A stretch of DNA of 22,016 nt from a virus (taxonomy: Duplodnaviria; Heunggongvirae; Uroviricota; Caudoviricetes). Where the stretch lies: positions 1 through 22,016 of the IMG/VR virus record IMGVR_UViG_2548876856_000003. One strand, given 5' to 3'. The first letter of the stretch is position 1. The number at the start of each line of letters is the position of its first letter. The notes under the pieces are model-generated. The model searched no databases, was not told the DNA's origin, and saw only the letters and a list, made by a program, of their open reading frames with translations. Of this stretch, positions 1 to 22,016 are shown one piece after another. The position numbers were made by a program, and so were the translations under genes.

Positions 1-819
1 CTGCATTACTTTATCATTATATATATGATAATAAAAATAGGTTTCTTTACTAAGAGACTTGAAAGTTGAAGCTAATCCCATTGACTCAACTCCAGCAATG
101 ATGCCCAATGATTGCATCTCAGATAAAAAATTATAGTTTAGCTCATTATCTAAGTATTCGTTGCTGAAGTTCGAACCAACTTTCTCCCCCTTGATAATCC
201 TATCAAGAAAGAGAAAAGAGAACAGTTTTTGTATTTTATTTGCTTCTTTTTGTGTCAGATTTTTGATGAAATCAACAGTTCTTAATGAATACGAACCTGG
301 GCTTTTTAATTCACCTGCAAGTATTCTTCCCCATAAATCCTGTAACTTCTCTGAACTACTTGTTGCAGCACTATCTCTCCACCTTAGCAACCAATCATTT
401 TCTATATTTTCGGCAGTAGGCTCAGACTGATCAATTGAAAGTATTTCTTCGGCAACAAATAATGACTTGGCGATATTTATTTCTTTCTGGACTTCATTTG
501 CAATAAGTTGAGTGCTTACTGCATTTTTTAAATTATCGAAATTTATGTAAGGCTCCATTGAACCTGAATTATCATACTCTTGTTTACTTTCTAATGAAAT
601 CAGTTTGGGGTTGTTTAGATCATTTAACGAAACGATTGCTTTTCCACTTTTTATGTTCTCAACATCCATCTCTGTTTGAGCCAAAACTAACATTTTTTTC
701 CTTTCCATTTCTAAACTGGCAACTCCCTCCCTACGCATTTGCCAGGGCTTACATAAAGCGCCAATACCTTTTTCTGCTGTGGTTTCCCACAGTTTAGTTA
801 CAAGCTTTGAACCAAACAT
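1..819 (-). CDS. Hypothetical protein, partial (3' end lies beyond the window start); AT-rich accessory ORF
   Basis: Minus-strand frame is open from the ATG at 819-817 to position 1: I checked every plus-strand triplet in frame 1 and found no TTA/CTA/TCA. AGGAG lies 10 nt upstream of the ATG and an in-frame stop sits just upstream at 844-846. Absent from the ORF track because it has no stop in the window. Composition is much more AT-rich than the phage genes. No recognisable catalytic motif in the visible 273 aa. Confidence 0.6.
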   Translation of the reverse strand, partial: MFGSKLVTKLWETTAEKGIGALCKPWQMRREGVASLEMERKKMLVLAQTEMDVENIKSGKAIVSLNDLNNPKLISLESKQEYDNSGSMEPYINFDNLKNAVSTQLIANEVQKEINIAKSLFVAEEILSIDQSEPTAENIENDWLLRWRDSAATSSSEKLQDLWGRILAGELKSPGSYSLRTVDFIKNLTQKEANKIQKLFSFLFLDRIIKGEKVGSNFSNEYLDNELNYNFLSEMQSLGIIAGVESMGLASTFKSLSKETYFYYHIYNDKVMQ

Positions 820-822
820 TCT

Positions 823-834
823 AGGAGATCTCCT
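823..834. promoter_or_regulatory. 12-bp perfect palindrome AGGAGATCTCCT overlapping the ribosome-binding site of the 1-819 ORF
   Basis: The sequence is identical to its reverse complement. It contains the Shine-Dalgarno-like AGGAG and the complementary CTCCT immediately upstream of the minus-strand start codon. Confidence 0.3.
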
Positions 835-969
835 GCACCAATTTTAGGTAATAATATAATGCAAAAAATATAACGCACTGATTTTATAATGGAAAGATAT
901 CAGAGATCACTGGCATGAGTCTAGACAGAGCAATTTGGGCATAAATGATGACTCAAACGGGAGATATTC

Positions 970-1239
970 TCACGCTACAGTTGTGGCTTTCAGTAAATCC
1001 AGTGCCATCTGTTTTTGAGACGGTGACATGTTGTTAAGTAGGGCTTGAACAATCACATCACCCGTTTTCGCACTGGGGCTGAGAGTGTGGGAGAACGTCA
1101 GATTCATCACAAACGTATGGCCACACTCGACATCTGAACAGGCGCAGTAAATATCCGCAATCTGCCGGTGCTTCCGGTTTGTTTTACGAATAACAGCCTT
1201 TGAGCCGCATTCCGGGCATTCGATTTTCAGAACTCGCAT
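970..1239 (-). CDS. Ogr/Delta-family zinc-finger protein (phage late-gene transcription activator-like)
   Basis: Translation MRVLKIECPECGSKAVIRKTNRKHRQIADIYCACSDVECGHTFV has the CPxC...R.T.R...YCxC....CGHTF arrangement typical of P2 Ogr / P4 Delta zinc fingers. GGAG lies 8 nt upstream of the ATG at 1239. An alternative upstream start at 1293 overlaps the portal stop as ATGA. Confidence 0.65.
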   Translation of the reverse strand: MRVLKIECPECGSKAVIRKTNRKHRQIADIYCACSDVECGHTFVMNLTFSHTLSPSAKTGDVIVQALLNNMSPSQKQMALDLLKATTVA

Positions 1240-1289
1240 ATTCCATGCTCCAGCTGTTAAATGATGCCTGGATTTTAGCCTTTTTCGCC

Positions 1290-2351
1290 TCATGCCGCAT
1301 CCTTATCCGTTGATTCTGTGTAACTTAAATCAAAGTTAAGGCGCAGTCTTTCCGGTATTTCGGGATCGTTGTTAACAGCGGTCATAAACCTGCGCTGAAT
1401 GGGCGCTATCTCGCTTTTCTTGTAAATCCTTTCCGCCTTTTCAACATCCCCCAGACCGGCAGTGTTCTGCGGGACAATTCCTGCCAGTCCTGCCGGAAAG
1501 CGGTGCGCGTTGAGAATGTCCTGCGCACTGATGTTTTTGATGTTGGCAAATTCATCTTTTGCGGAGATATCCCCCATTTCAATGAACTTGATCGCATCCC
1601 CATCCCCGCCAGGAATGTTCACCAGAATAGTGGAGAAGTTACCGATACCTTTGCTGTCACGCAGTTGCTGTTCAATCTCTTCTTCCATTTCATCCGTCAT
1701 ACTGGGATCACGCGTGTAGAGAATGCCGCCAGTATGAGCGCCGTTGTGGTAGTAGCGGCGGCGAAAAATTACGGCTTCGCTGTTAAGCAATGCCGAGTGT
1801 ACGCCGCCGATATAGTCGGGCAGTCCGTAAATATGCTGTTGCGGGTCGTACATCTTGATAAAAATGATATCTTCCTGTGGCCATACCTGCGGTTCGCCGT
1901 CCTGCAATACCACATAATCGCCGGGCTGGTCTGTGGCGTTGTCCCTGACTTTACGCCGGCGAATATACAAGCCGGGTAAAGGTTCCAGGGCAATCACATC
2001 CCCCCATCCGTTGCGGATTTTGCCAATCGCAATATCCCCGAAGGTTGTATAGTCAAACGCTGCGGCTTCCAGCTGGTCGTAAGTCAGGCCACCGCCCAGA
2101 TAATCAGACACAATCATATTTTTCCGGGCGTGGATGATGCCGCCATGCTGACCGTTCAGATTGATGAGCTGTGCCAGTGCCAGCCGGTCAATCGGCTGGG
2201 TAAAGTGATCGGCGGCATTGTCGTACCAGATGTCGCGGTAATCCGTACCGGTGGTCAGCACGGGTTCCGGTTTGCCGAATGTAATGATGCTCATTTTTTT
2301 GGACTTATCGCCGCGCGGGTTGCGCTTAACGAAGCGGTTTTTTTTACTCAT
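1290..2351 (-). CDS. Phage portal protein (P2 gpQ-like)
   Basis: 353-aa ORF immediately downstream of, and overlapping by 4 nt, the large terminase gene. Size and position match the P2 Q/P arrangement, divergent from the capsid operon. Confidence 0.75.
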   Translation of the reverse strand: MSKKNRFVKRNPRGDKSKKMSIITFGKPEPVLTTGTDYRDIWYDNAADHFTQPIDRLALAQLINLNGQHGGIIHARKNMIVSDYLGGGLTYDQLEAAAFDYTTFGDIAIGKIRNGWGDVIALEPLPGLYIRRRKVRDNATDQPGDYVVLQDGEPQVWPQEDIIFIKMYDPQQHIYGLPDYIGGVHSALLNSEAVIFRRRYYHNGAHTGGILYTRDPSMTDEMEEEIEQQLRDSKGIGNFSTILVNIPGGDGDAIKFIEMGDISAKDEFANIKNISAQDILNAHRFPAGLAGIVPQNTAGLGDVEKAERIYKKSEIAPIQRRFMTAVNNDPEIPERLRLNFDLSYTESTDKDAA

Positions 2352-4123
2352 GCAGCCTCTTTCCTTACACCCCAGCGGGATTTCGGTTTGTTTTCGTAGT
2401 TGAGTGGTTCGTTATGCAGGGCGTGGGTAATTGCCCAGAACGCCTCCGCGTGGCCAGTGTCCTGGCTGCGGTCAGCGACAAATGTCATGGCGTTACCGCT
2501 TTGCGTGGTGGTGCGGCGTACAGCCATAAAGCTGGCCGGGATCTCTTTCAGGTTCTTGTCCCATTCAATACGCTGACTTTCCACCACGTCCGCCGCTTTC
2601 AGTACCAGCTGATTTTTCGTGTTCATGTCGTAACGAATGGCGACGGCCACGCGCATGGCAAAATGCTGGATGTTGTCAAAAACACCCTGGCCAATACCGG
2701 TAACGTCCACTCCCAGATAGGTGAAGTTGTATTTTTTAAACAGGAGTTCGATCTGCCTGGCCTGATAGCGGAAGTTCATGCCCTTCCAGTTAATAACCTT
2801 CAGAACGCGGAATTTCTCTGCGGCATACATCGGCGGGGCAATAATCACAAAACACGACAAATCGCCGCTGCGTGCCGGGTCAAAGCCTCCCCATACTGGC
2901 CTGTCACCAAATGGCCGCGCAGCGTCCGGGTTGTGATCCTGCCAGGTGTCCACTTCCACGCCACAGGCTTCCAGATCTGAAAAACTGAATACGGAATCCT
3001 TGCTGTCCACGAACACGCACATATAGAGCATGTTGAAGGTGGCCGTGTTGTAGCGGTTGCGCAGCTTCTCGATGTTGGCCAGGTTGAAGCCACCTGCAAT
3101 GGCATCTTCCATCGTGATGACATAGCGCCACTGCCCATCCGGGCAAAGCCGTCCGCCGTTGCGCATTTCATCAAAGGACGGGAACTGAGCGGCCGCGCGT
3201 TTTTTGCTGCCCTGTTTCCATTCTTCCCCCGTCCAGAACGGGTAAGCCTGGTGCGTTTTGGCCGATGGCGTTGAAAAGTAGGTGGTGCGCCATTTGTCAT
3301 GGGTGGCCATTGCGCTGGCCACTTCGTTAAGCCTGGCGAAGTTAGGCACCCAGAAATATTCGTCACAGTACAGGTGGCCACTGTAGGACTGTGCTGTGTT
3401 TTTGTTGGTTGAGAGAAAACGCAGTTCAGCGCCGTTGCTGAGGCGGATCGGGTTGCCGGTCAGCGTGATGCCAAAATACTGTTCTGCAATGTTGACGATG
3501 TAAGACCTGAAGTATTCCGCCTGGACTTTGGAGGCAGACAGGAAGATTTGCGGATCGCCTGTCATGACCGCGTTTTCAAAGGCTTCAAACGCAAAGTACC
3601 AGGTGGCACCGATCTGGCGACTTTTAAGGATGTTCCTGACCTGCTGGCCGATGTTTCTGCGCAGGTGTTTCTGGTATTCAAAAAGATGTTCTTCCGCCCA
3701 GGAGTCAAAATCTGCCTGGGTCAGAGAAGAAATATCGTTTTTCCTGTTTTTGCGTTTGGGGCGCGGTTCATCGCTGTTGCTGTCCCGCGCAGCTGCCTGA
3801 CCGTTACTCTGGCCGCTGGCCATCTTTTCTTTATGCTTATTGCTTTGAGCACGCAGCTTTGTGGCGTGGGCAATCAGCATGTCCATTTCTTTCAGGTCGA
3901 GATCGGTTTTATTATCGCGGCTGGCCAGCAGCTGGTAGCGGCGTTCAATTGCCTCCTCTGTACTTTCAAAGCTGAGTAAATCCGCCCAGCTGTATTTCTC
4001 AGCCCAGTAGTAAACGATCCGCGCATTCGGCAGATTTAATTCTGATGCAATTTCTTTGGGCGTATAGCGGCGCAAATAAAGTGCGCGGACAACGCCTTTT
4101 AGTTCTTCTGAGTATTTAGCCAT
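2348..4123 (-). CDS. Terminase large (ATPase) subunit (P2 gpP-like)
   Basis: 591 aa. Contains the terminase-type deviant Walker A segment KSRQIGATW and a C-terminal nuclease-like region. Divergent from the scaffold/capsid genes as in P2. Confidence 0.85.
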   Translation of the reverse strand: MAKYSEELKGVVRALYLRRYTPKEIASELNLPNARIVYYWAEKYSWADLLSFESTEEAIERRYQLLASRDNKTDLDLKEMDMLIAHATKLRAQSNKHKEKMASGQSNGQAAARDSNSDEPRPKRKNRKNDISSLTQADFDSWAEEHLFEYQKHLRRNIGQQVRNILKSRQIGATWYFAFEAFENAVMTGDPQIFLSASKVQAEYFRSYIVNIAEQYFGITLTGNPIRLSNGAELRFLSTNKNTAQSYSGHLYCDEYFWVPNFARLNEVASAMATHDKWRTTYFSTPSAKTHQAYPFWTGEEWKQGSKKRAAAQFPSFDEMRNGGRLCPDGQWRYVITMEDAIAGGFNLANIEKLRNRYNTATFNMLYMCVFVDSKDSVFSFSDLEACGVEVDTWQDHNPDAARPFGDRPVWGGFDPARSGDLSCFVIIAPPMYAAEKFRVLKVINWKGMNFRYQARQIELLFKKYNFTYLGVDVTGIGQGVFDNIQHFAMRVAVAIRYDMNTKNQLVLKAADVVESQRIEWDKNLKEIPASFMAVRRTTTQSGNAMTFVADRSQDTGHAEAFWAITHALHNEPLNYENKPKSRWGVRKEAA

Positions 4124-7929: not shown

Positions 7930-8633
7930 TTGCCGGTGGTGAGCTGAATAAAAAGCAGCTTGCAGAGTTGCGTAAATCACTGGCCAGCATGGAGCTGCCG
8001 CCCAAAAAGCGCCAGCGCCTTATCTGGAGGCTGGCCAAATACGGCGTGATTGCCGCCGTAAAACGGCACGTTCGCAATCAGGAAGCGCCGGATGGTCAGA
8101 AGTGGCCGGGGCGTAAAACGAAGCGCAAAGGAAAGATGCTGCGGAACCTGCCAAAACTGCTGCATATCCGTGAAATGCCAGAGATTCAGGCGGTGCGGAT
8201 TTATTTGCAGGGCGGTGGCTACCGGAACGGGGAAACGCCGGTACCGGCCGGGACAGTCGGATATGCGCAACAAAACGGGATGCGTGTCAGTGTCAGCCGT
8301 CGCAGCCAGCCACGGAAGGCGGAGGCCGGAAAAATGGCCACGCCAGCCCAGGCCAAAAAACTGCGGGCGCTGGGGTACCGGGTACGTACCGGTAAACGCT
8401 GGAAAAAGCCCACGCTGGGCGAGTTAACCCAAACGATGCCATACAGCCGGGCGGGGTTACTGATTCGAAAACTCAGCGGTAAAGCGGTGAAAACCAGCTG
8501 GACAGTGGATCTTCCTGCCCGTGTCTTTCTGGGCATGAGTGACGATGAATTTGATAACGCGCTGGCGCGTCAGCTTCAGGCCATCGGCTTTGGCTGGGAT
8601 GTTAAGGCGCAGGATATTAAGGGGAAAACATGA
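7926..8633 (+). CDS. Putative virion morphogenesis / tail completion protein (gpS-like), very basic
   Basis: 235 aa, ATGA overlap with the upstream gene, rich in Arg/Lys. Contains a PDGQKWPGRK segment and a YAQQNG motif consistent with the virion morphogenesis family. Confidence 0.5.
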   Translation: MIAGGELNKKQLAELRKSLASMELPPKKRQRLIWRLAKYGVIAAVKRHVRNQEAPDGQKWPGRKTKRKGKMLRNLPKLLHIREMPEIQAVRIYLQGGGYRNGETPVPAGTVGYAQQNGMRVSVSRRSQPRKAEAGKMATPAQAKKLRALGYRVRTGKRWKKPTLGELTQTMPYSRAGLLIRKLSGKAVKTSWTVDLPARVFLGMSDDEFDNALARQLQAIGFGWDVKAQDIKGKT

Positions 8634-9757
8634 CCTGGCCAAACGTGACCGTGAACCAGGTAAACCAGCTGCTGGGTGAAACCAATGAAGTGGAGCGCAC
8701 GCTGCTGTTTATCGGTACGGGTACCAAAAATGTGGGGAAAACGCTGGCGGTGAATGCCCAGAGTGACTTTGATGCACTGCTGGGAGAGGGGGAAAGCCCG
8801 CTGAAAAACGATGTTCTGGCGGCACTGGCAAACGCCGGTCAGAACTGGTGGGGATTTATTCATGTGCTGTCCGCAGATGCTGAGGACGATGCCTGGGTGA
8901 AAGCGGTTCTGGCCGCACAGGTAGTGTGTTCGGTGGAAGGTGTGGTGCTGTCCAGTGATGTGACGGCAAAAGCCCAGGTGAATCAGGCAGTGACGTTACG
9001 ATCCACGCTGATTTCCAAATATGGGCGCTGGGTGTGGTTCATCCTGGCCGTGCAGGGAATACAGGAAGAAGAAGCCCAGGCGGATTACCTGACCCGTGTG
9101 TCTGCCATCCAGGACGGTATTGCAGAGAAGGCTGTGCAGCTGGTCCCGCGTCTGTGGGGAAATGAGCCGGGTGTGCTGGCTGGCCGTCTGTGCAGCCGTG
9201 CCGTGACTATCGCGGACAGTCCCGCCCGTGTGAAAACTGGGGCGCTGTTGAATCTGGGCAGTGATGAAATGCCGGTTGATGGTACCGGAGCGGTACTGGA
9301 GCTGGCCACGCTTCAGGCACTGGAATCGCAGCGCTTTAGTGTGCCGATGTGGTACCCGGATTATGACGGTTTTTACTGGGCTGACGGGCGAACGCTGGAT
9401 GTGGAAGGCGGCGATTACCAGTCGATTGAAACCCTGCGAGTTGCCGATAAAGCAGCGCGTCGTGTACGTCTGCTGGCTATCAGCAAAATTGCGGATCGTT
9501 CACTCAACAGCACACCGGGCAGCATTGCTGCACACCAGACGCTGTTTGCACGTCCACTGCGTGAAATGTCCACAGCGGCCAGTATCAATGGCGTGTCATT
9601 TCCGGGGGAAGTGAAGCCGCCGCAGGAGGGTGATGTGACCATTGTCTGGAAGAACAAAAAGACGGTGGATATTTATCTTGTGGTACGCACCTGGGAAGTT
9701 CCGCTGCAAATCACCATCAGTCTGTTACTGGATGCCAGTCTGGAGGGCGCTGCATGA
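8630..9757 (+). CDS. Putative tail sheath protein
   Basis: 375 aa, sits immediately before a roughly 150-aa gene in the usual sheath-then-tube order of contractile tails. ATGA-coupled on both sides. Assigned by context only. Confidence 0.5.
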   Translation: MTWPNVTVNQVNQLLGETNEVERTLLFIGTGTKNVGKTLAVNAQSDFDALLGEGESPLKNDVLAALANAGQNWWGFIHVLSADAEDDAWVKAVLAAQVVCSVEGVVLSSDVTAKAQVNQAVTLRSTLISKYGRWVWFILAVQGIQEEEAQADYLTRVSAIQDGIAEKAVQLVPRLWGNEPGVLAGRLCSRAVTIADSPARVKTGALLNLGSDEMPVDGTGAVLELATLQALESQRFSVPMWYPDYDGFYWADGRTLDVEGGDYQSIETLRVADKAARRVRLLAISKIADRSLNSTPGSIAAHQTLFARPLREMSTAASINGVSFPGEVKPPQEGDVTIVWKNKKTVDIYLVVRTWEVPLQITISLLLDASLEGAA

Positions 9758-11230: not shown

Positions 11231-11348
11231 AGATGCAGCGGAACTGCTGACTGTTTACCTTGAAATATATGGCCAGTGTGCGGCGCGTCATAATCAGTTA
11301 GTCGATGATATTAATTTAAGAGAGCGTGTTATTTATGGAACAAATTAA
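11049..11348 (+). CDS. o-spanin (Rz1-like outer-membrane lipoprotein)
   Basis: Starts inside the Rz-like gene in the +1 frame. Signal peptide followed by the lipobox LSAC, then a Pro-rich mature region. Extends past the Rz stop (overlapping rather than fully embedded). Confidence 0.6.
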   Translation: MRNRERSARKCLSRFLLTVACLMSLSACTTAPSPVPNVRYQENLKTRCATQLPRLNGATGKDAAELLTVYLEIYGQCAARHNQLVDDINLRERVIYGTN

Positions 11349-11592
11349 ACTGAGTGTTTGTGGTGCAGATATTGTTTTTGAACCTAATCAGACTGCTTAC
11401 AATAAACTGATTAATGAAATGGCAATGGATAATAAAGTTGCACCTGCAAATAATTATCTGATGCGTATTGTTACCCCTGAAACGAAAGAAGCTCTGATTG
11501 ACGTATTAAAACGTCCGGGTGCAGCGTTGCAACTGGTCAGTAAGGTTAATGATATTTACGCGCCGGAACTGGAGATTGAAGTAAAAAACTGA
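11335..11592 (+). CDS. Tail assembly chaperone (lambda G / P2 E analogue), zero-frame product
   Basis: About 85 aa, immediately upstream of the tape measure gene. Start chosen at the ATG at 11335 with AGAGAG upstream; the ORF-track start at 11326 is a GTG. Ends in a slippery heptamer. Confidence 0.65.
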   Translation: MEQIKLSVCGADIVFEPNQTAYNKLINEMAMDNKVAPANNYLMRIVTPETKEALIDVLKRPGAALQLVSKVNDIYAPELEIEVKN

Positions 11593-11783
11593 CAAAGCGA
11601 GTCCATGATATTGAACGAAATGGACTCGAACAGTATTTAATTCTTCGCCGTCATTATTTACCACATGGTCAGGATTCTGTTGACGATATTGCCGCCGCTA
11701 TATGGCTGGATAACCGTCACTGGGAATATACGGGAATAGCCGTGGCTAATGGCGTGGCTAAAGCATTTAAAGGCACTGAATGA
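11335..11783 (+). CDS. Tail assembly chaperone, predicted -1 frameshift fusion product (lambda GT / P2 E+E' analogue)
   Basis: The -1 frame is closed by a TGA at 11577-11579, then stays open for 64 codons from the slippery site to a TGA at 11781-11783 that overlaps the tape measure ATG. There is no in-frame ATG inside the extension. Confidence 0.5.
11583..11589 (+). other. Slippery heptanucleotide A_AAA_AAC (candidate -1 programmed ribosomal frameshift site)
   Basis: An X_XXY_YYZ heptamer in the correct phase with the chaperone reading frame (codons AAA AAC, then TGA). Confidence 0.5.
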
Positions 11784-13747
11784 AACAGTTAGATTTTACA
11801 TTAAGCCTTATTGATAAATTGTCCCTCCCGTTAAAACAGGCGCAGGGCAACGTAACGGGCTTTGCTGAAAAATCAAAAGAAGCCTTTATGCAGACTGGTG
11901 GCGGTGTTCTGGCGCTGGCGGGTACAGGGATGGCCATTAAAGGTGCGCTGATGCCCGCTATTGAAATGTATGACGCGCTGAATGATGCGGCCGCAAAAGG
12001 GATCGATGATTCTGCTCTTAAGGCCGTTCAGCGTGATGCGCTGCGCTTCAGTACAACCTACGGCGCCAGTGCGGTGGAGTTTGTCCAGTCCACGGAAAGT
12101 ATAAACGCCTCCATTGCCGGGCTGACCGGGAATGAGCTGCCGAAAGTGACGAAAGTCGCCAATACCCTGGCGTTTGCGCTCAAATCCACCGCAGCGGAAA
12201 CCGCTGAGTTTATGGGGCAGATGTTCGGTAACTTTTCCGCCGATGCCAACCGGCTGGGAAAGGTTGAGTTTGCTGAACAACTGGCCGGAAAAATGGTGTA
12301 CATGCGCAAAACCTTTGGCACGGAAATGGCTGCTATCAAGGATTTGATGGAAGGGGCGCGCGGCGTGGGTACTAACTACGGCGTGGGACTGGATGAACAG
12401 CTGGCCGTGCTGGGACAGCTTCAGCGGACACTGGGCACGGAAGCCAGCAGCGCTTATGAAGGCTTCATGACCGGAGCCATTGAGGGCGGTAAAAAGCTGG
12501 GACTGTCCTTCACGGATTCCACCGGCAAAATGCTGTCCATGCCTGAAATGCTGATCAAGTTACAGGGCAAGTATGGCAAAAGTCTGGAAGGGAATCTGAA
12601 AGCCCAGGCTGAACTGGATGCGGCATTTGGTGACAGTTCTGCGGTGGTGAAACACCTTTATGGCAATGTGGCGCTGCTTCAGCGCAATATCACAGAACTG
12701 GGCGGTGCAGATGGTCTGAAGCGTACCCAGGAAATGGCGCAGAAAATGGTGAAGCCGTGGGATCGCTTTGTCGCAATCCTGAAGGCTATCCAAACCGTGA
12801 TTGGCCTGACGCTGATCCCGGTGCTCTATCCAGTTCTGAACCGCCTGGCTGATATGGGGCAGACTTTTGCCCGCTGGATGCAGCTGTTTCCCAACATTGC
12901 GCGTGTTGTCGGGTATGCGGCAATGGCCTTGCTCAGCTTTGCGGCTGTGGGTGCTGTCGCCAATATTGTTATGGGTGCCTCTAAATTCATCATGATGGGG
13001 TTGCGCGGGATCTGGGTGGCGCTGATGGCCGTCACGAAAATTTACACTGCCACTGTCTGGCTGGGAAACATTGCCGTTGTTGCCTGGAACGCCACGCTGA
13101 AATTTCTGCGCGGTACGTTGCTGGCGGTTCGTATGGCGGCAATGATGGCCGGGATAGGTATCAATCTGATGAGCTGGCCGATCCTGCTGGTGATTGGTGC
13201 CGTCGCCTTACTTGCTGCCGGTTGCTGGCTGCTGATTAAGCACTGGGACACGGTAAAGAACGCGGTCATGGATACCGCTGCATTTCAGGCATGCGCCAGT
13301 GTAGTGGAATGGCTGGCCGGGGTGTTTACTTCAGCCTGGCAGTTTATCAGCGAAGGATGGAACAGTTTTATTTCCATGCTGACCGGGTTTTCTCCTTCAC
13401 AGGCATTAAGCGGTCTGGCCACGGGTATTGTTTCGTTGTTTGATAATGTCTGGCTATCCGTTAAAAACGGTTTTCTGAAGTCGTGGAACTGGATTGTTGA
13501 GAAACTGAATAAAATCCCCGGTGTGGATATATCAATGGCCAGTACCACTTCACCACCATTAACTGGAAATACGTTGTCAACGGGTGGAGAGATAAAAGGA
13601 ATTGATAAGGGCGGGATAAATAAAACAATCAGTAGCAATTCTAAATCAGTCACTGATAACAGCAAAAAAATAGGGGAGGTTCATTTCCATACCAAAGAAG
13701 CGATGTCCCCTGGTCAGTTAATGGAATGGCAGGAGCTAAATGCGTGA
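11780..13747 (+). CDS. Tail tape measure protein
   Basis: 655 aa. Alpha-helical, Ala/Leu-rich N-terminal half, a central block of hydrophobic segments and a C-terminal Ser/Thr-rich region. Located directly after the chaperone frameshift pair. Confidence 0.85.
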   Translation: MKQLDFTLSLIDKLSLPLKQAQGNVTGFAEKSKEAFMQTGGGVLALAGTGMAIKGALMPAIEMYDALNDAAAKGIDDSALKAVQRDALRFSTTYGASAVEFVQSTESINASIAGLTGNELPKVTKVANTLAFALKSTAAETAEFMGQMFGNFSADANRLGKVEFAEQLAGKMVYMRKTFGTEMAAIKDLMEGARGVGTNYGVGLDEQLAVLGQLQRTLGTEASSAYEGFMTGAIEGGKKLGLSFTDSTGKMLSMPEMLIKLQGKYGKSLEGNLKAQAELDAAFGDSSAVVKHLYGNVALLQRNITELGGADGLKRTQEMAQKMVKPWDRFVAILKAIQTVIGLTLIPVLYPVLNRLADMGQTFARWMQLFPNIARVVGYAAMALLSFAAVGAVANIVMGASKFIMMGLRGIWVALMAVTKIYTATVWLGNIAVVAWNATLKFLRGTLLAVRMAAMMAGIGINLMSWPILLVIGAVALLAAGCWLLIKHWDTVKNAVMDTAAFQACASVVEWLAGVFTSAWQFISEGWNSFISMLTGFSPSQALSGLATGIVSLFDNVWLSVKNGFLKSWNWIVEKLNKIPGVDISMASTTSPPLTGNTLSTGGEIKGIDKGGINKTISSNSKSVTDNSKKIGEVHFHTKEAMSPGQLMEWQELNA

Positions 13748-21241: not shown

Positions 21242-21491
21242 AAAAGTATGAAAGGAATTTCAGTATTTTTCAGTGAAAAAGATTAGTGAAGGAGCACTTA
21301 TTGGTTGTAACCAACAGATAAACAAGAAAAAATGATTTTTTTGTGAGTTTTGTAAATTGATAGCTTGTGATAATAGGTTATCGAAGGAAGCCCACATCTG
21401 AGAGTTGGTGCGGGCTGGTTAGAAGTTTACATAATCAACAGAACTGAAATTTTCTAAAATTTAAAGTGCACTGTTCCGATTTTAGGTTTTA

Positions 21492-22001
21492 TTAATTCAT
21501 CAGTTTCTTTTGCTTTGCAGCAGACGTAATTACCTTTTTATTTATAGTAAATACATTTATTTCTGGCACGGATGTATAATCACCATCATCAGTGATGATA
21601 TTCGTAATGCCATGGTTTAACATAGTTTCATGAATCATGAGGTCATAACCATCTAAGGTATTTCCAGTCATTTTTGATGCACAAGCATCTGTTAATTTTT
21701 GGCATATTGTTAAGTCAACTTGCGGTGCAATCTGTTTTACTTGAGCCCACGAAACCTCAACTTCTTTCATTGCAAGTTGCCTTTCCTTTGCATATTTATG
21801 CCTGAATTCCTTAGTCCTAATATTTGATTTTATTGTTGCCTCGTGTATTTCTCTTTCAGTGGACTCAATTATATGTGCGAGTTCGGCTAAAGATAAGCCA
21901 GAGTGAAACAGTTGTGAGTTGTTAGAAATACAATCGCTAATAAAATTAACGTAGGTATTTAGATACTGTCTGTTAGACGGTATGCCTTTTGTATAAGTCA
22001 T
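21492..22001 (-). CDS. Hypothetical protein, AT-rich; weak PIN-like nuclease pattern in the C-terminal half; may extend beyond the window end
   Basis: 169-aa ORF from the track. The frame is still open for the 15 nt between the ATG and the window end, so the true start may lie outside. The segment DLMIHETMLNHGITNIITDDGDY resembles the C-terminal strand-helix-strand of PIN-domain nucleases. AT-rich, unlike the phage genes. Confidence 0.45.
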   Translation of the reverse strand: MTYTKGIPSNRQYLNTYVNFISDCISNNSQLFHSGLSLAELAHIIESTEREIHEATIKSNIRTKEFRHKYAKERQLAMKEVEVSWAQVKQIAPQVDLTICQKLTDACASKMTGNTLDGYDLMIHETMLNHGITNIITDDGDYTSVPEINVFTINKKVITSAAKQKKLMN

Positions 22002-22016
22002 CCAATACCAAACATT

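Follow-up and report, generated by a model that had tools for sequence, protein, structure and literature searches.

A DUF2806-family gene in the gpA-portal slot of a P2/186-like prophage, a probable single-protein abortive-infection system

The left end of the IMG/VR virus record IMGVR_UViG_2548876856_000003 (Caudoviricetes; the whole stretch of 22,016 nucleotides, positions 1 to 22,016, is called the window below) carries a gene of the DUF2806 family next to the packaging genes of a P2/186-like prophage. On the minus strand, positions 1-819 contain 273 codons without a stop, starting with an ATG at 819, and the ribosome-binding site AGGAG is situated at 834-830, 10 nt 5' of this ATG. A preliminary description of the window had noted that the frame is closed only by the window edge, and in a related prophage the stop is indeed found beyond that edge. 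The frame is missing from the list of open reading frames (ORFs) because frames running off an end go unlisted; the two plus-strand ORFs that the list does contain here, 161-430(+) and 558-797(+), lie on the opposite strand and are shadows of the frame, as had been proposed. The GC content is 0.33-0.36 over positions 1-800 versus 0.47-0.57 across most of positions 1000-4000. The gene and its most conserved segment are as follows.

1..819, minus strand: DUF2806-family gene, first 273 of 345 codons (open frame and Pfam DUF2806)
310..396, minus strand: family signature, start of the conserved helical core, codons 142-170, DWLLRWRDSAATSSSEKLQDLWGRILAGE

The gene was completed by comparison with 5,426 complete E. 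coli genomes, searched with window positions 1-1300. This segment was matched at 99.8% in two of them, and the locus in NZ_CM132658.1 (L001) is identical to the window across positions 1-1080. There the frame runs 72 codons further to a stop, so that 219 bp beyond the left edge hold the final 72 codons and the stop codon, and the product is an intact protein of 345 residues. The leftward extension proposed in the preliminary description has thus yielded a gene that continues past the window without interruption. It is L001:13782-14819(-), annotated as WP_000468061.1, "DUF2806 domain-containing protein", and its product is 100% identical to P0135, a protein present in 161 contigs from several genera, mostly Salmonella enterica. 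The higher AT content ascribed to the frame relative to the phage genes holds for the complete gene as well, its GC content being 33.6% versus 51.3% for the prophage.

The full protein matches Pfam DUF2806 (PF10987) with 90.6 bits (E 1.8e-25; the Pfam gathering cutoff is 24.5 bits). Residues 109-313 correspond to positions 11-220 of the 221-position profile, which is near-complete coverage, and the window fragment alone yields 79.9 bits (3e-22). All 28 aligned relatives match the same profile, and 324 homologs of the full-length protein were found. Hence the left-edge frame, whose fragment matches the Pfam profile and whose full product has these homologs, is a true coding gene, and, judged from its sequence, a full-length member of the DUF2806 family.

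The preliminary description had also pointed to a Trp-rich segment without an assignable motif. The segment is there, at residues 142-170, but the second half of the statement did not stand, as this segment is the DUF2806 signature itself: D142, W143, W147, W163, L167, G169 and E170 are invariant across 96 sequences. The column entropy is lowest in residues 141-200; conservation is highest in residues 1-60 and 141-200 and lowest in 61-93, 201-228 and 301-345. At that, the conserved N-terminal 100 residues of the window protein fall outside the Pfam domain.

The family is large. At E<=1e-3 it comprises 8,245 cluster representatives (50% identity), at E<=1e-30 it comprises 1,216, and the relatives span the Proteobacteria and several other phyla. 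The best 150 of the 8,245 representatives are mostly about 320-370 residues long and align end to end, and none of these 150 has a fused extra domain. Among the relatives in hand, 82 of 103 are of this long form (median 344 residues), while the forms from the Bacteroidota and from IncX4 plasmids have 283-320 residues and N-termini unrelated to that of the long form. The window protein (39 kDa, isoelectric point 5.3) is predicted to be soluble: no membrane segment is seen in it, the 19-residue Kyte-Doolittle maximum being 1.1. No enzymatic motif was found in the protein.

The structure was modelled with AlphaFold2 for P0001, 90% identical to the window protein, from an alignment of 96 sequences. 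The model has a mean predicted local distance difference test score (pLDDT) of 78.7 and a predicted template modelling score (pTM) of 0.71, with high confidence in residues 100-345. From the N-terminus onwards it shows three helices (5-57), a linker that is variable and of low confidence, a long helix spanning residues 94-128, a core of four helices (141-200) and an alpha/beta C-terminal part, which in the model appears winged-helix-like at about residues 229-345. The family profile matched no sequence in the PDB, and the BFVD library of viral structures yielded a single match.

Other collections add little. Profile searches, recommended in the preliminary description, succeeded with Pfam and failed with PADLOC-DB 2.0, which yielded no match at E<=5 for the full protein or E<=1 for the fragment, its 2023 library predating the Belisama system discussed below. 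PHROGs contained no match, and from NCBIfam came only a sub-threshold match to TIGR03899.

No conserved partner gene was found in the 80 loci whose neighbours were clustered. The commonest neighbour family occurs in five of them, and the hypothesis of a partner gene was rejected, as no neighbour family was seen in more than five of the 80 loci. Five distant short-form relatives from the Bacteroidota share a co-directional gene about 170 bp upstream (L091:5211-5813(+) and four other loci), encoding about 200 residues with a hydrophobic N-terminus and without a Pfam match. By eye, this membrane protein resembled putAbiC, an assignment rejected as Pfam gave no match. The short-form subfamily of the Bacteroidota may represent a variant with two genes.

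The part of the insert that precedes the gene contains the following elements, all on the minus strand.

820..985, minus strand: part of the insert 5' of the DUF2806 gene, with the ribosome-binding site and two candidate sigma-70 promoters (from the sequence)
910-905 and 888-883, minus strand: candidate promoter 1, GTGATC-16 nt-TATAAA, spacing fixed in five diverged alleles
895-890 and 872-867, minus strand: candidate promoter 2, TTTCCA-17 nt-TATATT, from the promoter scan, not above chance

Promoter-like hexamers are no more frequent in the 150-bp AT-rich spacer than in shuffled sequence. The spacer around candidate promoter 1 is otherwise 52% conserved across the five diverged alleles, and the fixed spacing of the GTGATC/TATAAA element weakly suggests that the DUF2806 gene may have an independent promoter. 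The gene is also co-directional with, and downstream of, the operon of the terminase, portal and ogr-like genes. A terminator scan at the DUF2806 locus found nothing; a hairpin CCCTCACT-N13-AGTGAGGG with a long loop and a short T-run is located just 3' of the gene, outside the window (L001 13734-13762).

The gene order in L001 is gpA (11293-13308), a small ORF, the DUF2806 gene, the ogr-like gene and the portal gene. The prophage is integrated between mntS and mntR, its early region resembles that of phage 186 (CI, CII, Fil), and its head genes are confirmed by Pfam as those of the P2 family. No copy of the P2/186 cohesive-end (cos) consensus turned up in L001 when as many as 3 mismatches were allowed. 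The DUF2806 gene is situated between the replication gene A and the portal gene, and the slot is the P2-type gpA-gpQ hotspot. On the window side it is flanked by genes that the preliminary description had correctly named as its zinc-finger and portal neighbours.

970..1293, minus strand: Ogr/Delta-like zinc-finger gene, the right flank of the slot and not cargo (Pfam Ogr_Delta 9e-20, phrog_603)
1290..2351, minus strand: portal gene (Pfam/PHROGs)
2348..4123, minus strand: large terminase gene (Pfam/PHROGs)

The content of the slot varies while the flanks are conserved. By BLAST against related prophages, the insert is L001 13556-14985, that is, 1,430 bp reaching up to window position 985, and its right boundary is about 15 bp within the 3' end of the ogr-like gene (L001 14985/14986). 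In L003 and L004, where the slot is empty, 68 bp of unrelated sequence replace the insert, most other related prophages have about as little there, and in 15 E. coli genomes merely 123-129 bp separate the two BLAST flanks. An alternative occupant is seen in E. coli Br_190_kylling (L002), whose insert of about 1 kb (7999-9001) contains putAbiC: L002:8259-8990, present also in NZ_AP044767.1, encodes a 243-residue "putative phage abortive infection protein" matching Pfam putAbiC (1.6e-12), PADLOC AbiP (1.5e-4) and phrog_38218. In the 5,426 genomes, the DUF2806 gene is carried by two and putAbiC occupies the slot of two. The flanks retain 85-92% nucleotide identity between related prophages. The comparison of loci suggested earlier has therefore yielded three states of one slot, the 1,430-bp insert, 68 bp and the putAbiC insert, between conserved flanks, and the gene is absent from most relatives, as a core phage gene would not be.

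The ogr-like gene retains 90-94% identity in relatives, whether or not they carry the insert, and its start overlaps the stop codon of the portal gene (window 1290-1293), so this gene of the late-activator type is apparently co-transcribed with the packaging genes. In P2, ogr is situated near att; here the ogr-like gene is located between the cargo slot and the portal gene.

On the other side, the small ORF (L001:13428-13610, 60 residues) separates gpA from the slot. It is encoded on the opposite strand and is convergent with the DUF2806 gene; its product belongs to phrog_698 (function unknown) and has only a faint DinI-like match. Since the breakpoint of the insert is about 18 codons before its stop, the C-terminus of the product differs between filled and empty slots. 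The small ORF was rejected as a partner of the DUF2806 gene, being convergent phage backbone that is present in the empty-slot relatives. A near-perfect LexA box TACTGTATGCATATACAGTT is seen at L001:13386-13405, 23 bp 5' of the small ORF, with one mismatch to the searched pattern and a chance expectation of none. Box and ORF are located about 400-600 bp outside the window, past its left edge. In its position and presumed SOS control the small ORF is reminiscent of Tum, the antirepressor of phage 186.

DUF2806 alleles of 53-96% identity are present in the same slot of related prophages, both from other samples and from IMG/VR. Three very distant P2-like phages, whose portal is 34-36% identical, have a relative with 28-45% identity next to the portal gene, and in two of them, L120 and L123, gpA flanks the relative on the side opposite to the portal. 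In L108 the small ORF and the DUF2806 gene come in the reverse order, which implies that the gene was inserted there independently. When L001 is compared with L011, identity amounts to 99% for the portal, terminase and capsid proteins and to 95% for gpA, but to only 70% for the DUF2806 proteins; this would be consistent with fast divergence or with swapping of alleles. A recent exchange of cargo between the window phage and its E. coli twin was considered and dropped, as the near-identical block reaches about position 3100 and nothing specific to the cargo can be claimed. The gene is foreign in composition: its GC content is 8-23 points below that of the surroundings in 21 of 23 viral loci.

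Outside the P2-like phages, relatives are found in other temperate phages beside a CI-type repressor gene or replication genes, in Vibrio integron-like cassette arrays, which hold full-length relatives (P0103, 37% identity), on plasmids, and at chromosomal sites away from any phage. A full-length V. cholerae relative, P0171 (39% identity), is situated at the edge of a Zot-encoding filamentous prophage (L100-L102:4001-5017); this locus adjoins matP and lon, and the preceding small gene has a weak GIY-YIG match. With the edge of a filamentous prophage, the family is seen on a third type of mobile element. The cassette arrays, this prophage edge and the place beside a repressor gene are, like the hotspot, mobile contexts or contexts expressed in the lysogen. 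A homolog search seeded with the Vibrio integron copy retrieved two V. cholerae clusters, P0154 and P0171, both rare, and these are probably not the gene of the pandemic strain.

Over positions 1-21284 the window and its E. coli twin can be aligned at 90.65%; the ~730 bp that follow are unrelated. Window positions 21285-22016 contain an ORF, 21492-22001(-), of 169 codons with a sub-threshold PIN match (4e-4), and in the twin the same place, from the last tail gene to mntR, holds a hypothetical gene and a PIN-domain gene of 470 codons. To judge by these sequences, the attR end looks like a second variable cargo slot. A third variable position adjoins the integrase gene in related prophages and is empty in L001. 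It contains a P-loop nucleoside triphosphatase (NTPase) of 594 residues between int and CI in L003 (1096-2880), a bPH_3/SHOCT protein between CI and int in L011 (15348-15908) and L012, and a KAP-NTPase-like gene beyond int in L016 (16636-17038).

Two relatives of the gene have been studied experimentally. Belisama is a single DUF2806 gene from the chromosomal integron of V. cholerae N16961 (Darracq et al., bioRxiv 10.1101/2024.07.02.601686). At high multiplicity of infection it causes a strong, unrecoverable lysis of the culture, and the phage is not amplified; its over-expression is toxic, so that reduced induction was needed (bioRxiv 10.1101/2024.07.02.601686). By blastp (E<1e-5, at least 50% query coverage), its authors found homologs in 70 genera of the Pseudomonadota (bioRxiv 10.1101/2024.07.02.601686). 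DefenseFinder has called Belisama on a Desulfovibrio prophage (PMC12724379) and in Oceanimonas, the latter call spanning 819 bp, or about 272 residues (PMC12874462). Compared by domain and description, the window gene and Belisama share the DUF2806 domain, a stand-alone position on mobile DNA and a wide spread in the Pseudomonadota; the architecture is in both cases that of a DUF2806 protein with no obligatory partner, and full-length relatives of the window protein (37-39% identity) are present in Vibrio integron-like arrays and in V. cholerae. They differ in location, an integron cassette as opposed to a hotspot of a P2-like prophage, and one DefenseFinder-called member has about 272 residues as opposed to 345 in the window protein. 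From the 819-bp Oceanimonas call, Belisama proper may be of the short form.

AbiAlpha is ef2833 of prophage 6 in E. faecalis V583, a protein of 272 residues with the Pfam domain Abi_alpha (PF14337, formerly DUF4393); it brings the lysis of infected cells forward by about 10 min, and a similarity to PF10987 was remarked on by its authors (PMC6356687). Like the window gene, it is a single gene carried by a prophage, and by analogy the same phenotype, premature lysis, would be expected. However, AbiAlpha comes from the Firmicutes, is shorter and does not have the N-terminal module of the window protein. The window protein has no match to PF14337 at E<=5, and weak matches are seen in four of its 28 relatives. 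The 70%-identical allele P0003 scores a borderline 29.4 bits against the gathering threshold of 29.0 (9.6e-7; residues 150-301 aligned to profile positions 38-196 of 196), and P0004 scores 25.7 bits. An hhalign comparison of the family profile with the Abi_alpha protein of arrangement 141 of Rousset et al., from E. coli P2 hotspots, returned a probability of 0.2, a value that says nothing either way as the target is a single sequence. By these scores the window protein is, as far as profiles can tell, related to the Abi_alpha family but not a member of it.

In P2 the cos-proximal region from gpA to the portal gene gpQ is a defence hotspot (Rousset et al. 2022, PMC9122126); it holds old and tin, as the preliminary description had said, and the same region is the main P2 hotspot in a 2026 survey (PMC13586616). 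The window slot resembles that of old and tin in its position and in holding small, AT-rich, swappable, probably anti-phage cargo amid conserved phage genes. The window protein, however, has no sequence relation to Old or Tin; moreover, in its lineage the ogr-like gene separates the slot from the portal gene, and most of the E. coli relatives have an empty slot. Among the P2-hotspot arrangements in Table S5 of Rousset et al. are "RVT_1 + hypothetical + DUF2806" and "DUF6358 | Abi_alpha", which were not assayed, and some of the hotspot genes that were tested gave no protection (PMC9122126). DUF2806 is already catalogued in the P2 hotspot, and to a specialist the window gene is unsurprising.

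One more paralog belongs to the backbone of IncX4 plasmids. WP_000052343.1, of 283 residues, is 30% identical to residues 98-317 of the window protein; it is encoded at L130:2821-3672 on plasmid pSH146_32 and on more than 300 similar conjugative plasmids. Like the window protein, it contains the DUF2806 domain and is carried by a mobile element, but it is of the short form, with an N-terminus unrelated to that of the window protein. In widespread mcr-1 IncX4 plasmids this gene is disrupted by the mcr-1.1-pap2 cassette (PMC8221240). The insertion that brought colistin resistance may thus have inactivated a putative abortive-infection gene.

The explanation that we consider probable is that the window gene is a stand-alone, single-protein abortive-infection system defending the population of lysogens against other phages. 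The hotspot, the variation of the slot, the foreign GC content and the link to DUF2806 likewise favour the suggestion of the preliminary description that the frame is accessory or defence cargo. The case for defence is made by homology, to Belisama and AbiAlpha, together with the hotspot context, and proceeds by analogy. The gene, its own upstream region included, would have been inserted into the gpA-portal hotspot of a P2/186-like prophage. As in Belisama and AbiAlpha, the lysogen would produce the protein, and when a sensitive phage infects the cell, premature or unrecoverable lysis, or death, would follow before the progeny is complete; lysis might come about through a disturbance of holin timing or a direct effect on the membrane, among other routes. 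A weaker suggestion comes from conservation: the conserved N-terminal helices (1-60) and the helical core (141-200) may be the constant part, of the effector type, while the variable linker, the insert at 201-228 and the winged-helix-like C-terminus (about 229-345) may recognise the phage trigger.

A bolder version, which we hold only tentatively and regard as rather doubtful, is that the long-form proteins (about 345 residues) make up a distinct class of one-protein abortive-infection systems beyond copies of Belisama and AbiAlpha, with a fold unlike solved structures, the N-terminal module and the DWxxRWR...LWGxxLAGE core being a new effector and the C-terminus a phage sensor. Such a class would comprise at least 1,216 cluster representatives at E<=1e-30.

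The gene might instead be a moron with no role in defence, regulating the lysis timing of its own prophage or contributing to host fitness from a variable slot. Its place downstream of the terminase-portal-ogr-like operon, in the same direction, would allow late read-through. The phenotypes of AbiAlpha and Belisama both involve lysis, and the family may therefore act on the lysis machinery, while not every hotspot gene tested by Rousset et al. was protective. Nevertheless, most close relatives with an otherwise complete gene order do not have the gene, which is hence dispensable for the phage cycle; the family also resides in integron-like arrays, plasmids and phage-free chromosomal sites; and for two independent superfamily members a block of foreign phages has been demonstrated. 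We consider this explanation unlikely.

Less probable still is an addiction module, that is, an intrinsically toxic protein stabilising the prophage rather than sensing infection. It would agree with the toxicity that made reduced induction of Belisama necessary, and many toxin genes are AT-rich and mobile, as this gene is. But a toxin on its own could not persist in 161 contigs, and the 80 loci contain no conserved adjacent antitoxin-like gene; the sole close neighbour, the small ORF, is convergent phage backbone (phrog_698) kept in the empty-slot relatives.

Two further explanations have little to recommend them. That the protein is a nucleic-acid-binding regulator, for instance a winged-helix transcription factor for host or prophage genes, seems quite improbable. 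As for a non-functional or silenced AT-rich relic, the very low GC content could attract silencing of the H-NS type and the scan revealed no promoter above chance, but the frame is intact at 345 codons, the identical protein is found in 161 contigs of several genera, the family numbers 8,245 cluster representatives and shows many invariant residues, and conservation at the protein level extends across same-slot alleles that are only 53-70% identical, so that we give this explanation hardly any credence.

If the gene is indeed an abortive-infection system, the prophage gives its Salmonella or E. coli host a suicide defence encoded by one gene, which bears on phage therapy and on competition between prophages. 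With more than 8,000 clusters at 50% identity, the DUF2806 family is large; prophages, integron-like arrays and plasmids carry it, and two of its relatives are experimentally positive. An E. coli/Salmonella member such as this one, residing in a well-understood hotspot with natural alleles and empty-slot controls, would be convenient for studying the mechanism of sensing and killing.
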